DNA from: Escherichia coli
GTDB lineage: Bacteria > Pseudomonadota > Gammaproteobacteria > Enterobacterales > Enterobacteriaceae
Assembly (NCBI RefSeq): GCF_003334335.1
Contig: NZ_QOWQ01000044.1
Length of the DNA stretch: 35,113 nucleotides
Reading direction: 5' to 3' (one strand)
Shown here: piece after piece, positions 17,274-35,113 of the stretch
Numbering within the stretch: position 1 is the stretch's first letter
Layout of the letters: each line of letters opens with the position of its first letter
The notes under the pieces: model-generated
What the model was told of the DNA's origin: nothing
Database searches by the model: none
Seen by the model: only the letters and a program-made list of their open reading frames with translations
Program-made: the position numbers and the translations under genes

Positions 17274-17589
17274 CCGCTGACACAGGTCTGCGGCTGGAAT
17301 TGCCTGATGCGCTACGCTTATCAGGCCTACGAGTTCAGTGCTCTACGTAGGCCGGATAAGGCGTTCACGCCGCATCCGGCATAAACTACAGCTGGCAGAC
17401 AGCCGCTGCGAAGGCATTTTTGCACATGGCGTTGGAGGAATGCGCGGTTGTTGGCGGGAATGAATCACGGTAGCCGCTGACACAGATCAGCGGCTGGAAT
17501 TGCCTGATGCGCTACGCTTATCAGGCCTACGAGTTCAGTGCTCTACGTAGGCCGGATAAGGCGTTCACGCCGCATCCGGCATAAACTAA
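17190..17589. repeat. 2 x 200-bp tandem direct repeat (cynR 3' end + hairpin + REP pair)
   Basis: Copies at 17190-17388 and 17390-17588 differ at about 6 positions; each carries the last 28 codons of cynR including TAG, a short hairpin and two inverted REPs. Confidence 0.92.
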
Positions 17590-20294: not shown

Positions 20295-20470
20295 GTAGGC
20301 CTGATAAGACGCGTCAGCGTCGCATCAGGCATCTGAGCATGGTGTCGGATGCGACGCGAGCGCCTTATCCGACCTACGGTTCAGGTCCGTAGGCATGATA
20401 AAACGCGTCAGCGTCGCATCAGGCATCGGCACACAGTGCCGGATGCACCGCGCGACGCATCCGACAATAA
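20295..20470. repeat. REP/BIME array between codB and prpE
   Basis: Four REP palindromes in alternating orientation (gtaggcctgataagacgcgtcagcgtcgcatcaggc...); the last abuts the prpE stop. Confidence 0.88.
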
Positions 20471-32087: not shown

Positions 32088-32463
32088 TGTGTTTACTCCT
32101 GATTAGCTATGTGTATTTGGCAACGCCTGATATGTCATCGCGGCAAAACGCGTCCATTGAATATAGCCAATATTTAAACCACCCGATCCAGCCCCAACAT
32201 GCCGCGAGCCTGAATGAAACAGAGCAGCAACGTTCCCCATAAGGCGAGCGCCTGTAAGTGTGATATTTGCTATCTGTAAAAGACTAAAATCGGCAAAACT
32301 GATGATCTTTTCACGTAGACAAATAGTTATCTACACAACGTCAATAAGGGCATATTCCTCAAAGATAATGTCCATTTCTGCCGACACACTCATATTCAGA
32401 TTGCCCCACTCCCTGGGGCTTAAATCTCTTACTATTCACCGTTGCAGGCGTTTCAAATGCGCA

Positions 32464-33846
32464 TCAACCTGCCACACTCCCCCACACCAGTTGCCCTTTA
32501 TGGAACGTTGCGGTTCTCGGCGAGATACGCGCCACCGCCTCGGCGGAACAGGAGGCGTCCACCAGCACAAAGCTGGCGTCATCCTGCGCTTTTGGCCATA
32601 CACGCTCGCCTTTTTCATTCAGCGGCAATACATCGCCAGTGGCTAAAAACAGCGAGCGGGAGAGGTTCTGTTCGTTAGGACGAATATAGAGCTGCGCGTA
32701 CAGATTGGCTTTTTCCAGCATGTCGCCCAGACCATAAGGCGACCAGTGGTCGATAACGCTGTCAGTGCCAGTCATCACTTTTACGCCTTTGTCGTGCAAC
32801 TGTTTGAGCGGCATATGCAGCGTGCCAATCGGCACCGTCGAGGCGATAGAAATTTGTTGCACCACCATCCGGTTCGCCAGTTCATCTACCTGTTGCTCGT
32901 TGAGCGTTGCCAGCGCAAAGGCGTGACTGATGGTCAGCTTGCCCTTCAGCTGTGGCGTTTTCTCTACCGTTTCAACCATATAATTGATGGCTGCCACGCC
33001 TGCCGGAGTGGTTTCGTGCAGGTGAATATCGACGCCTTTGTCGTAGTCCAGCGCAATCTGGAACATGGTGTCGAGGGATTTTTCCATCGCGCCATCAACA
33101 CTGGTCGGGTCCAGGCCGCCGACGTAATGCGCCCCCGCCTGCATCGCTTCACGCATTAAAGGTTCAGATTTCGACAGCAGCAAACCGTGCTGCGGGAAGG
33201 CGACGATTTCACACTCAAAGCCCGCCTGACGTCGCGCCAGCACCGCCTGCAAATTTTGCAGATTTTTCAGGCCGGAAACCGGTTCGATATTGCAGTGGCT
33301 GCGGGCAATGGTGGTGCCTTTCGACTGCAATAAATCAATCAGTTTTTCTGCCCGCTCCTGAGTGTACGGTTGCAGTTCCGGCAGCATTTTCTGCTCGAGT
33401 TTGATCATGTCCTGGATGGTGGTGCCTGCCGGACGATTGAGCGAGCGCCACGGCCCGCCGTAAAAGGTTTTGTCGAGATGAATATGCATGTCGCGGGTGG
33501 TGGGCAGCATCAGCTTACCGCCAGCGTCATAGTGCGGCAGCGTGGCGTCCGGATGCAGCTTGTTCTCGCGCAGGGCGACAATTTTGCCGTCCTGAATCTC
33601 CACGGTCTGGCGCGCCGTGCGGGTCTGCACCGCCACGCCATTTTCGTAGTCAAAACCGGTTTCCAGCAGCACGTTATCGAGATAGTAATGCGGGTCAGTG
33701 ATTTTCATGGTGTTGTTCGCTTCGCAGTTTAGGGTGCCAGCTACCGCCGCATGGGCGAGCGGCACAGAGGTACCAAACAGCGCGGCGGCGGTGACCATCT
33801 TACCGCTCTGGCTCAGAAATTCACGGCGGCTATTGCTTTCTTTCAT
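32464..33846 (-). CDS. yahJ: amidohydrolase-superfamily deaminase with Tat-type signal peptide
   Basis: 460-aa ORF; N-terminus MKESNSRREFLSQSGKMVTAAALFGTSVPLAHA has a twin-arginine motif, hydrophobic core and AHA cleavage site; HIHLD metal motif shared with CodA. Confidence 0.9.
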   Translation of the reverse strand: MKESNSRREFLSQSGKMVTAAALFGTSVPLAHAAVAGTLNCEANNTMKITDPHYYLDNVLLETGFDYENGVAVQTRTARQTVEIQDGKIVALRENKLHPDATLPHYDAGGKLMLPTTRDMHIHLDKTFYGGPWRSLNRPAGTTIQDMIKLEQKMLPELQPYTQERAEKLIDLLQSKGTTIARSHCNIEPVSGLKNLQNLQAVLARRQAGFECEIVAFPQHGLLLSKSEPLMREAMQAGAHYVGGLDPTSVDGAMEKSLDTMFQIALDYDKGVDIHLHETTPAGVAAINYMVETVEKTPQLKGKLTISHAFALATLNEQQVDELANRMVVQQISIASTVPIGTLHMPLKQLHDKGVKVMTGTDSVIDHWSPYGLGDMLEKANLYAQLYIRPNEQNLSRSLFLATGDVLPLNEKGERVWPKAQDDASFVLVDASCSAEAVARISPRTATFHKGQLVWGSVAG

Positions 33847-33855
33847 CTTAAGTCC

Positions 33856-34806
33856 TTACGTTTTAATAATATGAGTGCCCGTTTCGCCGCGCAGCGCCGC
33901 AGGCAGGCATTCCGGCGTGGTGATAATCACTTCTTTGCCGCCTTGTTCTAAAAATGTCAGGCTGGCGATGATTTTTGGCAACATGCTGCCGGGCGGGAAA
34001 TGCCCTTCCTGCATATAGCGGGTCATGGTGGCAATATCCACCCGATCGAGCGCCTGCTGCTGCGGTTTGCCAAAGTGAATACACACTTTTTCGACGCCAG
34101 TGGTGATCACAAGAATGTCGGCGTGAATTTCACGGGCCAGCAGCGCGGTAGAGAGATCTTTGTCGATAACCGCGTCCACGCTTTGGTAATCTCCCGCGTC
34201 AGTACGCACTACCGGAATTCCACCGCCGCCCGCGCCAATTACGACAAAACCTTGTTGGATCAGCGCTTTAATGGCAGGTGCTTCGACAATACGTTTCGGT
34301 TCCGGCGAGGCGACCACGCGGCGATAGCCCCGCCCGGCATCTTCAACAAAACACCAGTCAGGGTTTGCCTTTTGTAATTCGTCACGCTGGCTGTCACTAA
34401 AGAATGCGCCGATGGGCTTGGTGGGATGGGCAAAACCTGGATCGTTTTTATCCACTTCCACCTGAGTCACCACGGTGACGGCTTTCTTCTCGCCGTGACG
34501 CGCCAGCCGGTTATTCAGCGCCTGTTGGATCAGATAGCCGATGCCGCCCTGCGTATCTGCCACACAGTTCGCCAGCGGCGTTAAGGGCAGCCCTTCGCGC
34601 TTGTGGGCAATCTCCGCACGGCGTAAATCCAGCCCGACCTGCGGCCCGTTGCCGTGGGTCAGCACAATGTCGTAATCGGAAGCCAGCATTTCCAGCACCG
34701 TATCGGCGACGGCTTTCACCGCCTCCGCCTGATGCTCAATCGACTGGCTGGCGTTATCTTTGATAATGCTGTTGCCACCAATGGCAACGACCACAAGCTC
34801 TTTCAT
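33856..34806 (-). CDS. yahI: carbamate kinase-like protein
   Basis: 316-aa ORF beginning MKELVVVAIGGNS... (amino-acid kinase fold); stop lies 9 bp upstream of the yahJ start, so the two are probably co-transcribed. Confidence 0.92.
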   Translation of the reverse strand: MKELVVVAIGGNSIIKDNASQSIEHQAEAVKAVADTVLEMLASDYDIVLTHGNGPQVGLDLRRAEIAHKREGLPLTPLANCVADTQGGIGYLIQQALNNRLARHGEKKAVTVVTQVEVDKNDPGFAHPTKPIGAFFSDSQRDELQKANPDWCFVEDAGRGYRRVVASPEPKRIVEAPAIKALIQQGFVVIGAGGGGIPVVRTDAGDYQSVDAVIDKDLSTALLAREIHADILVITTGVEKVCIHFGKPQQQALDRVDIATMTRYMQEGHFPPGSMLPKIIASLTFLEQGGKEVIITTPECLPAALRGETGTHIIKT

Positions 34807-34855
34807 GTTGTTATGTCCGCTACAGAGGGTGATGGGGTTATGACCAACGCCAGAC

Positions 34856-35113
34856 TGCCTGATGCGCTACGCTTATCAGGCCTACAATTCTCGCGCCACT
34901 CGTAGGCCGGATAAGGCGTTCACGCCGCATCCGGCAATGGTGACAAATGCCTGATGCGCTACGCTTATCAGGCCTACAGATTCTCGCGCCACTCGTAGGC
35001 CGGATAAGGCGTCCACGCCGCATCCGGCAGTGGTGGCAAATGCCTGATGCGCTACGCTTATCAGGCCTACAGATTCTTGCGCCATTCGTAGGCCGGATAA
35101 GGCGTTCACGCCG
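34856..35113. repeat. Tandem BIME array (92-93-bp period) upstream of yahI
   Basis: Unit starts at 34856, 34948 and 35041; array is truncated by the window end. Confidence 0.9.

Follow-up and report, generated by a model that had tools for sequence, protein, structure and literature searches.

The closest described relatives of the genes considered here belong to the allantoin pathway of Escherichia coli. AllF, AllG and AllH were identified in 2024 as an oxamic transcarbamylase (OXTCase), an enzyme that turns oxalurate and phosphate into carbamoyl phosphate and oxamate, and AllK (YbcF), as shown in 2022, is the catabolic carbamate kinase (CK) that acts next after AllFGH (PMC11326118, PMC9843812). 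Here we analyse yahI, a CK-family gene on a 35,113-nt stretch of E. coli DNA (contig NZ_QOWQ01000044.1 of assembly GCF_003334335.1; hereafter the window), together with the yah genes around it. The window corresponds to the lac-cyn-cod-prp-yah region of E. coli K-12 in reverse orientation. The explanation that we consider moderately probable for the locus as a whole is that YahI is a cytoplasmic catabolic CK ending a module that would be fed by YahE, YahF and YahG.

The yah cluster and allFGHK contain the same four families (FdrA-like, DUF1116/AllG, DUF2877/AllH and CK), and AllF-, AllG- and AllH-family genes stand with a CK gene in one yah cluster. Identities are 25% for YahE and AllH, 38% for YahF and AllF, 45% for YahG and AllG, and 38% for YahI and AllK, with E-values from 1.7e-10 to 5e-120; YahE matches Pfam AllH (2.5e-28), and YahF matches the FdrA model NF004760 (488 bits). 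An AllS-like LysR regulator is adjacent in both systems: the best model for YahB was AllS (267 bits, cut-off 372), followed by PunR. The presumed logic of the two clusters, ureide phosphorolysis to carbamoyl phosphate followed by ATP formation, would also be shared. The original prediction had placed yahI with further yah genes beyond the window and likened the group to the fdrA/ylbE/ylbF/arcC cluster (now allFGHK). Extending the locus uncovered yahD, yahE, yahF, yahG and an open reading frame (ORF) annotated 'yahH', and the paralogy of YahE/F/G/I with AllH/F/G/K, the conserved synteny and the best match of YahB to AllS uphold both suggestions.

The yah cluster nevertheless differs from allFGHK in its sequences, which are only 25-45% identical and fall in a separate orthologous group conserved across phyla, in its gene order (H-F-G-K, versus F-G-H-K in all), in its additional conserved genes for the ankyrin protein YahD, a 515-amino-acid permease and YahJ with its twin-arginine translocation (Tat) motif, and in lacking linkage to the allantoin genes allB, allC, allD and allE. 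Deletion of allF or allG reduces oxamate to zero despite intact yahEFG, and yahEFG therefore does not substitute under allantoin-fermenting conditions. Orthology to AllFGHK, with oxalurate as substrate, was ruled out by these deletions, the low identity, the missing allB/C/D/E linkage and the closer orthologues present in Brevibacillus. The yah paralogues go unmentioned in both papers on the all operon. A separate observation in one of them, undiscussed by its authors, is that an allFGH deletion strain supplied with only allFG or allGH regained 7-16% of its oxamate (PMC11326118, Table 3); YahE or YahF, as a paralogous subunit, may have stood in for the missing one there.

A scan with YahI of one genome per species yielded 80 loci, whose cluster content was tabulated by tblastn. 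The layout yahB, then yahD-E-F-G-X-yahI-yahJ, in which X is the 515-amino-acid permease where there is one, was found in about 75 of these species-level loci, in genera that include Citrobacter, Enterobacter, Leclercia, Lelliottia, Trabulsiella, Yokenella, Buttiauxella, Atlantibacter, Serratia, Pantoea and Providencia; the layout in Aeromonas is identical in kind. Clusters in more distant bacteria were located by searching with the permease, and the following arrangements were recovered (Ank, ankyrin protein; H, F and G, AllH-, AllF- and AllG-like proteins).

Brevibacillus: a PucR regulator followed by Ank-AllH-AllF-AllG-NCS1 permease-CK-cytidine-deaminase-fold protein-permease.
Janthinobacterium: Ank-H-F-G-permease-CK-LysR.
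Bosea: a PucR regulator followed by permease-Ank-H-F-G-CK, plus an amidohydrolase without signal peptide.
Pasteurella: Ank-H-F-G-CK-LysR-YahJ, the YahJ with a Tat motif.
Paenibacillus: H-F-G-CK-permease, followed by a hydrolase of the M20 peptidase type.
Photobacterium: permease, followed by F-G, a hydrolase of the AstE/AspA type and an NCS1 permease; AllH lies on the opposite strand.

The Brevibacillus proteins are 77.5% (YahG), 66% (YahF), 58% (YahI) and 55% (YahD) identical to those of E. coli, whereas Brevibacillus YahG, YahF and YahI share only 48%, 36% and 35% with AllG, AllF and AllK. Because the Brevibacillus proteins resemble their Yah counterparts much more than the All proteins, the yah-type cluster is, on protein comparison, a distinct and strongly conserved orthologous group apart from allFGHK. 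It is accompanied by regulators of the PucR or AllS-like type, transporters resembling NCS1 allantoin permeases and hydrolases that vary, which gives it a catabolic flavour.

Two side observations concern the upstream half of the cluster. First, yahE is missing while yahD, yahF, yahG, the permease gene, yahI and yahJ are present in Enterobacter, Leclercia, Lelliottia, Huaxiibacter and Silvania (loci L037-L062) and in Aeromonas; in the loci that have it, YahE evolves faster than any other member (37-64% identity, dN/dS 0.18-0.29), and its absence would be odd if all three subunits were needed, as they are for AllFGH. Second, the proteins encoded from yahF to yahJ in Pseudocitrobacter are 96-99% identical to those of E. 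coli (dS about 0.2), whereas those from yahB to yahE are only 56-92% identical, with dS of 1.2-1.5 for yahD and yahE. This pattern indicates that a recombination or transfer took place recently, its breakpoint lying near the yahE/yahF junction.

Within the window, the segment centred on yahI comprises the following features.

33856..34806, minus strand: yahI coding sequence, an ORF with an ATG start, 316 amino acids, carbamate kinase family.
33847..33855, minus strand: 9-nt spacer between yahI and yahJ, sequence TAAGGACTTAAGATG.
32464..33846, minus strand: yahJ coding sequence, 460 amino acids, AtzC/CodA-like amidohydrolase with predicted Tat export.
33748..33846, minus strand: codons 1-33 of yahJ, twin-arginine signal peptide running from SRREFL through a hydrophobic stretch to AHA, with cleavage before the next A.
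32403..32419, minus strand: GC-rich hairpin GCCCCAGGGAGTGGGGC, 45 nt past the yahJ stop, without a T-tract.
34807..34855, minus strand: leader of yahI, 49 unique nt, in which a weak ribosome-binding site (GGA) lies about 10 nt ahead of the ATG.
34856..35113, no strand assigned: repetitive extragenic palindrome (REP) array of the bacterial interspersed mosaic element type 2 (BIME-2; REP23), alternating Z2 and Y REPs with a 93-bp period, overlapping the annotated ORF 'yahH' and cut by the window end.
34856-34885, 34948-34977 and 35041-35070: complete Z2-type REPs.
34902-34935 and 34995-35028: complete Y-type REPs; a third, at 35088-35113, is cut by the window end.

The protein encoded by yahI shows no difference from YahI of K-12 MG1655. 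It aligns over its full length with solved CKs, the best being that of Pyrococcus furiosus (1e19, 6e-83, residues 3-314), followed by Enterococcus faecalis (1b7b, 1e-72) and Giardia (3kzf, 4e-66, PDB search). The motifs GGN (10-12), H51GNGPQVG58, PTKPIG (128-133, with K130), G193GGGIPV (193-199), IDKD (214-217, with K216-D217) and GSMLPK (273-278, with K278) are all kept; their catalytic roles are those that we take from the published E. faecalis CK structures. No signal peptide is present. By its sequence, YahI is a full-length CK homologue in which every nucleotide and carbamoyl-phosphate motif is intact, as the original prediction of a carbamate-kinase-like gene had it, and we hold the predicted CK activity by itself with more confidence than the overall explanation.

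YahI shares the amino-acid-kinase fold, the full-length alignment and the catalytic motifs with ArcC of the arginine deiminase pathway (1b7b) and with the P. furiosus CK (1e19). Unlike in the arginine deiminase pathway, its genomic context lacks arcA and arcB (arginine deiminase and ornithine transcarbamylase), and unlike ArcC it scores just under the arcC equivalog cut-off and belongs to a CK subfamily of its own (NCBIfam NF009007, 649 bits, cut-off 266). The score below the equivalog cut-off is the reason for its RefSeq name, 'carbamate kinase family protein'. A metabolic-model paper describes the function of yahI, arcC (ybcF) and yqeA as 'not well characterized'. Kinases of the YahI type were also seen in other surroundings. 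At five Proteus loci a CK 72% identical to YahI stands alone, and Serratia sp. DD3 has a CK with 82% identity to YahI beside an IclR-type regulator and a bona fide allantoin transporter, at a locus that also holds distant FdrA/DUF1116-like genes (42-46% identity). These CKs show that YahI-type kinases have been reused in other modules.

The direction in which such a kinase would run bears on a further explanation, in which YahI would use ATP to form carbamoyl phosphate from carbamate, and YahEFG would carbamoylate an amide or amine, giving an N-carbamoyl product. A synthetic role of this kind has been proposed for the P. furiosus CK, the best solved relative of YahI, and both reactions are reversible: OXTCase has been assayed from carbamoyl phosphate and oxamate, and the CK reaction (CBMKr) is reversible in metabolic models. 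We nonetheless regard this as most improbable, given that the gap-filling paper on the iJO1366 model judges carbamoyl-phosphate synthesis by these kinases unrealistic in vivo and that the importers, hydrolases and PucR/AllS-type regulators of the cluster are typical of catabolism. The established thermodynamics of CK likewise favour ATP formation.

The second gene of the pair, yahJ, follows yahI closely. The original prediction had yahI ending 9 bp before yahJ and tightly linked to it, and this is how the genes lie: the Shine-Dalgarno sequence of yahJ, AAGGA, overlaps the yahI stop codon (TAAGGACTTAAGATG). In the Enterobacteriaceae loci the spacer measures 6-31 nt, with two outliers of 47 and 70 nt. 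YahJ matches NCBIfam NF005312 (713 bits), and its closest solved relatives are N-isopropylammelide hydrolases of the AtzC type (6nbo, 2e-43; AtzC 2qt3, 4e-30), followed by CodA (about 1e-16). The metal and catalytic motifs H121xH123, H275xxE278, H308 and D362 describe a mononuclear metal site and, by the alignment and the known CodA positions, correspond to CodA H61/H63/H214/E217/H246/D313. The metal site and HxxE motif are common to AtzC, CodA and YahJ; unlike AtzC and CodA, YahJ carries a twin-arginine signal peptide and falls under every curated deaminase cut-off, with 101, 81 and 67 bits against cytosine-deaminase models whose cut-offs are 438, 483 and 403.

The N-terminus of YahJ combines an S/T-R-R-x-F-L motif, a hydrophobic stretch and an AxA cleavage site (SRREFLSQSGKMVTAAALFGTSVPLAHA, followed by A), and an RRxFL/I-type motif is kept in every YahJ orthologue examined, those of Escherichia, Providencia, Aeromonas and Pasteurella included. 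Because the Tat signal is conserved in every orthologue checked, YahJ probably acts in the periplasm. It also appears on a published list of Tat substrates, with no function assigned (PMC7549933). YahJ is, in addition, what varies in the cluster: Providencia rustigianii and Pantoea sp. A4 are without it, and hydrolases of other families occupy its place in Brevibacillus, Paenibacillus and Photobacterium. The CK and AllF/G-like genes stay together where YahJ varies, except in Photobacterium. A constant core with a varying hydrolase is the pattern expected if YahJ were a lineage-specific feeder and YahEFG with YahI the common end of the pathway.

These results bear on the explanation closest to the original prediction, in which yahI and yahJ form a self-contained unit, with kinase and deaminase acting on one carbamoyl or amide compound, the REP array insulating them and the upstream genes unrelated. 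The 9-nt spacing, the Shine-Dalgarno sequence over the yahI stop and the adjacency of the two genes in most loci would fit such a unit, as would the separation of yahG from yahI by a 421-nt gap with a highly structured REP array. Since YahJ is probably periplasmic and YahI has no signal peptide, joint action on a single compound is weakened, and YahJ can be absent, replaced or (in a plasmid copy in E. coli) truncated while the CK stays with AllF/G-like genes, Photobacterium apart. Moreover, a consensus scan found no promoter-like site before yahI, and the REP array is limited to Escherichia and Pseudocitrobacter, a gene or a short gap taking its place elsewhere. We therefore consider a self-contained unit quite improbable, and the reasoning from a CK paired with a deaminase does not hold up well; the functional partners of YahI are most likely YahE, YahF and YahG rather than YahJ.

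The repeat array that had been noticed just upstream of yahI is indeed a REP/BIME array, beginning at 34856, 50 nt upstream of yahI after 49 unique nucleotides. In the full locus (our locus L001, positions 8900-9258) it comprises four units of 93 bp with eight REPs (four Y and four Z2), starts 13 nt past the yahG stop and fills 359 of the 421 nt separating yahG and yahI. Its RNA would fold with -194.5 kcal/mol (z = -6.7), a value that none of 100 shuffles equalled. The Rfam family naRNA4 (RF02564), built on the nucleoid-associated non-coding RNA from REP325, matched at 34905-34974 (plus strand, 78 bits) and 34998-35067 (plus strand, 72 bits), above the gathering score of 59.5; on the yah coding strand the scores were 54 and 53 bits, so that the better strand is antisense to yahI. 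The Y/Z2 alternation and regular period are common to the yah array, known here from its sequence, and to BIME-2 arrays like that of REP325, from which naRNA4 comes; unlike in REP325/naRNA4, the better-scoring strand of the yah array is antisense to the yah genes. From what is established about REPs, the array, starting so close to yahG, could stabilise or down-tune the upstream message.

The number of Y/Z2 pairs varies from 2 to 4 among the three Escherichia species examined and from 1 to 4 across Escherichia and Pseudocitrobacter, the only genera with E. coli-type REPs at the yahG-yahI junction; the other genera without the permease have gaps of 79-195 nt with genus-typical palindromes. Direct displacement of the permease gene by the REP array was considered and rejected, since in Klebsiella, Kluyvera and Raoultella, which also lack the permease, the gap is short and holds palindromic elements typical of these genera. 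The restriction of E. coli-type REPs to Escherichia and Pseudocitrobacter means instead that the array was added later to an already permease-less junction.

Three further observations concern the repeats. The putative 98-amino-acid 'protein YahH' annotated by RefSeq (window 34882-35109, minus strand, and onward; 8936-9232 of the full locus) would consist wholly of translated REP units, a 31-amino-acid peptide repeated three times. A sigma-70-like site matching the consensus at 9 of 12 positions, a consensus match only, lies in the 5' end of yahI at 34740-34767 (plus strand) and faces the array. Additional Y/Z2-type REP copies occur in the window at 101-134, 13148-13181, 13827-13856, 17301-17380, 17501-17580 and 20344-20377, those between 17301 and 17580 forming two Y/Z2 pairs 200 bp apart.

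Beyond the window, yahG, yahF (annotated fdrA), yahE, yahD and the REP-built 'yahH' lie on the strand of yahI, and yahC and yahB are divergent from the yahD-yahG strand. No sigma-70-like promoter or terminator was found by the consensus scan on the coding strand from yahD to yahK, where the scan gave fewer sites overall than in shuffled sequences and neither supports nor excludes internal signals. The hairpin at 32403..32419 received no score in the terminator scan; it is a possible end of the transcription unit. The yahJ-yahK spacer in which it lies measures 376 nt and also contains a 25-codon remnant annotated as a pseudogene (32174-32248, minus strand). In enterohaemorrhagic E. coli (EHEC), RNA sequencing and ribosome profiling showed the transcript of the REP ORF (yahH/X002) to be well covered by footprints, and the authors of that study propose an operon yahDEFGIJ (PMC4765031).

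In most other genera, the position between yahG and yahI is occupied by the gene for a polytopic membrane protein of 515-520 amino acids, which E. coli lacks. The 515-amino-acid protein had no Pfam match and no PDB sequence match at E <= 10, and no NCBIfam match. Its AlphaFold2 model (mean predicted local distance difference test score, pLDDT, 80.7) has the 7+7 inverted-repeat fold of UraA, SLC26 and SLC23. Foldseek matched the model to SVCT1, UraA, UapA and AZG1/2 and equally to BicA, SLC26 and Bor1, with template-modelling (TM) scores of about 0.45-0.57, and the fold search thus does not separate nucleobase carriers from anion carriers. The label 'xanthine permease' occurs in source annotations only and, being unverified, was not used to fix a substrate.

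Clusters without the permease were found in Escherichia, Pseudocitrobacter, Kluyvera, Raoultella, Klebsiella and Citrobacter amalonaticus. All of them have yahC instead, which encodes a DUF1097 membrane protein (3668-4165 of the full locus, outside the window) and is perfectly anti-correlated with the permease gene. Because the permease-less clusters form a single clade in the tree of YahF, YahG and YahI, loss of the permease and gain of yahC count as one ancestral event rather than as independent evidence. The anti-correlation consequently carries no statistical weight for a replacement of the permease by YahC, and such a functional replacement is a conjecture.

The absence of the permease raises the further question of whether the E. 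coli cluster is a functionless relic, its genes kept by drift or with YahI as a spare CK backing AllK and YqeA. A REP array or a short gap in the permease slot throughout the Escherichia/Klebsiella/Kluyvera clade would be consistent with decay, and no phenotype or function of the module was found reported in the searched literature. Deletion of allK (ybcF) affects allantoin fermentation only slightly, and back-up CKs would be compatible with this. In 142 of 5426 complete E. coli genomes there is a second, permease-containing cluster of the yah type, re-acquired on DNA flanked by insertion sequences (IS), with 106 of its 152 places on plasmids. In the example of pSA186_2 (NZ_CP022731.1), the IS-flanked cluster is about 89% identical at the nucleotide level to that of Citrobacter portucalensis, and its yahJ is truncated just past the Tat motif.

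Against a relic stand the low ratios of non-synonymous to synonymous substitution (dN/dS) of yahI (0.03-0.10), yahJ (0.05-0.10) and yahG (0.03-0.08), which include comparisons inside the permease-less clade, and the presence of at least 80% of the yahJ-yahI-REP stretch in 5036 of 5426 complete E. coli genomes (about 93%, in which the ORFs are intact). A dN of 0.58 for yahF of Escherichia albertii conflicts with the 97% protein identity and was treated as an alignment artefact. The ribosome footprints in EHEC and the mild competitive defect of a yahJ deletion in infection by extraintestinal pathogenic E. coli (ExPEC; competitive index, CI, 0.70, p = 0.02; PMC7549933) also count against a relic. 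Given the low dN/dS and the presence in most genomes, selection maintains the yah genes, and this speaks against a relic in decay; we regard a relic as unlikely. By the same token, the purifying selection and the EHEC signal across the REP region leave the term 'cryptic', used in the original prediction, unproven.

Returning to a catabolic module ending in YahI, the following sequence of events would account for the locus. YahE, YahF and YahG would form a three-subunit enzyme that uses phosphate to cleave a compound of the N-carbamoyl or acyl-ureide kind, though not oxalurate, yielding carbamoyl phosphate, and YahI would transfer the phosphate to ADP, giving ATP and carbamate, the latter decomposing to NH3 and CO2. 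Expression of yahI would probably occur by read-through from a yahD promoter over the REP array, and yahJ would be translated off the same mRNA from the ribosome-binding site that overlaps the yahI stop. YahJ, exported by Tat, would serve as a lineage-specific periplasmic feeder that deaminates or de-amidates an external amino-heterocycle or amide, the product of which would be taken up and reach YahEFG, or it would free ammonia from a precursor outside the cytoplasm; we are less confident of this role than of the overall explanation. Uptake in most genera would depend on the UraA/SLC26-fold transporter encoded between yahG and yahI, whose gene would have been lost in the Escherichia/Klebsiella/Kluyvera lineage, with a BIME array now in the gap in Escherichia. 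The NCS1 allantoin-permease-like, PucR, AllS/PunR-like, AtzC/CodA-like and cytidine-deaminase-fold neighbours suggest that the substrate belongs to the class of cyclic ureides or nucleobase-like compounds.

Several points weigh against this explanation. YahI reaches 346.2 bits on the arcC equivalog TIGR00746, 12 bits short of the cut-off of 358.25, and YahI-like CKs (72-82% identity) also occur outside the module, so that the kinase is not exclusive to it. yahE is missing in several genera that retain yahF and yahG, and we see no enzyme that would open the ring on the way from a deaminated heterocycle to a linear ureide. E. coli is without the usual permease of the cluster, so that its pathway may be inactive or supplied in another way. 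The expression of downstream genes can be attenuated by REP/BIME arrays, and read-through across the array in K-12 is something we infer. Finally, the literature that we searched holds no published enzymology of YahI, YahEFG or YahJ.

The genes themselves were already annotated and named, and a 2024 survey of the y-ome counts yahC, E, G, H, I, J, L and M among the uncharacterised genes, in a cluster 'associated with repeat sites'. No functional study of yahI, yahJ, yahD-G, YahB, DUF1116 or DUF2877 was found in the searched literature, in agreement with the original prediction, which knew of no substrate for the pathway. What is new is the reading, based on paralogy, of the cluster as a putative second transcarbamylase and CK module for substrate-level phosphorylation. 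In its widest form, which we put forward tentatively and hold to be slightly short of an even chance, the yah-type cluster would encode a pathway, widespread and so far undescribed, that gains ATP from a ureide or a compound resembling a nucleobase, allantoin and oxalurate excepted. Its first step in enterobacteria would be periplasmic, through a Tat-exported AtzC/CodA-like enzyme; the permease would have been lost and YahC gained in the Escherichia-Klebsiella-Kluyvera lineage, and a BIME array would occupy the slot in Escherichia and Pseudocitrobacter.

Six adjacent genes of E. coli K-12 are still on the list of uncharacterised genes, and the identification of AllFGH in 2024 gives the yah cluster a concrete, testable hypothesis, that of a second three-subunit transcarbamylase with a CK of its own. 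The very strong conservation of YahG between E. coli and Brevibacillus (77.5% identity), the spread of the cluster on plasmids in clinical and poultry E. coli and the mild competitive defect of the yahJ mutant in infection make it a good target for function finding. Since Citrobacter and Enterobacter keep the permease, they would probably be better hosts than K-12 in which to look for a phenotype.

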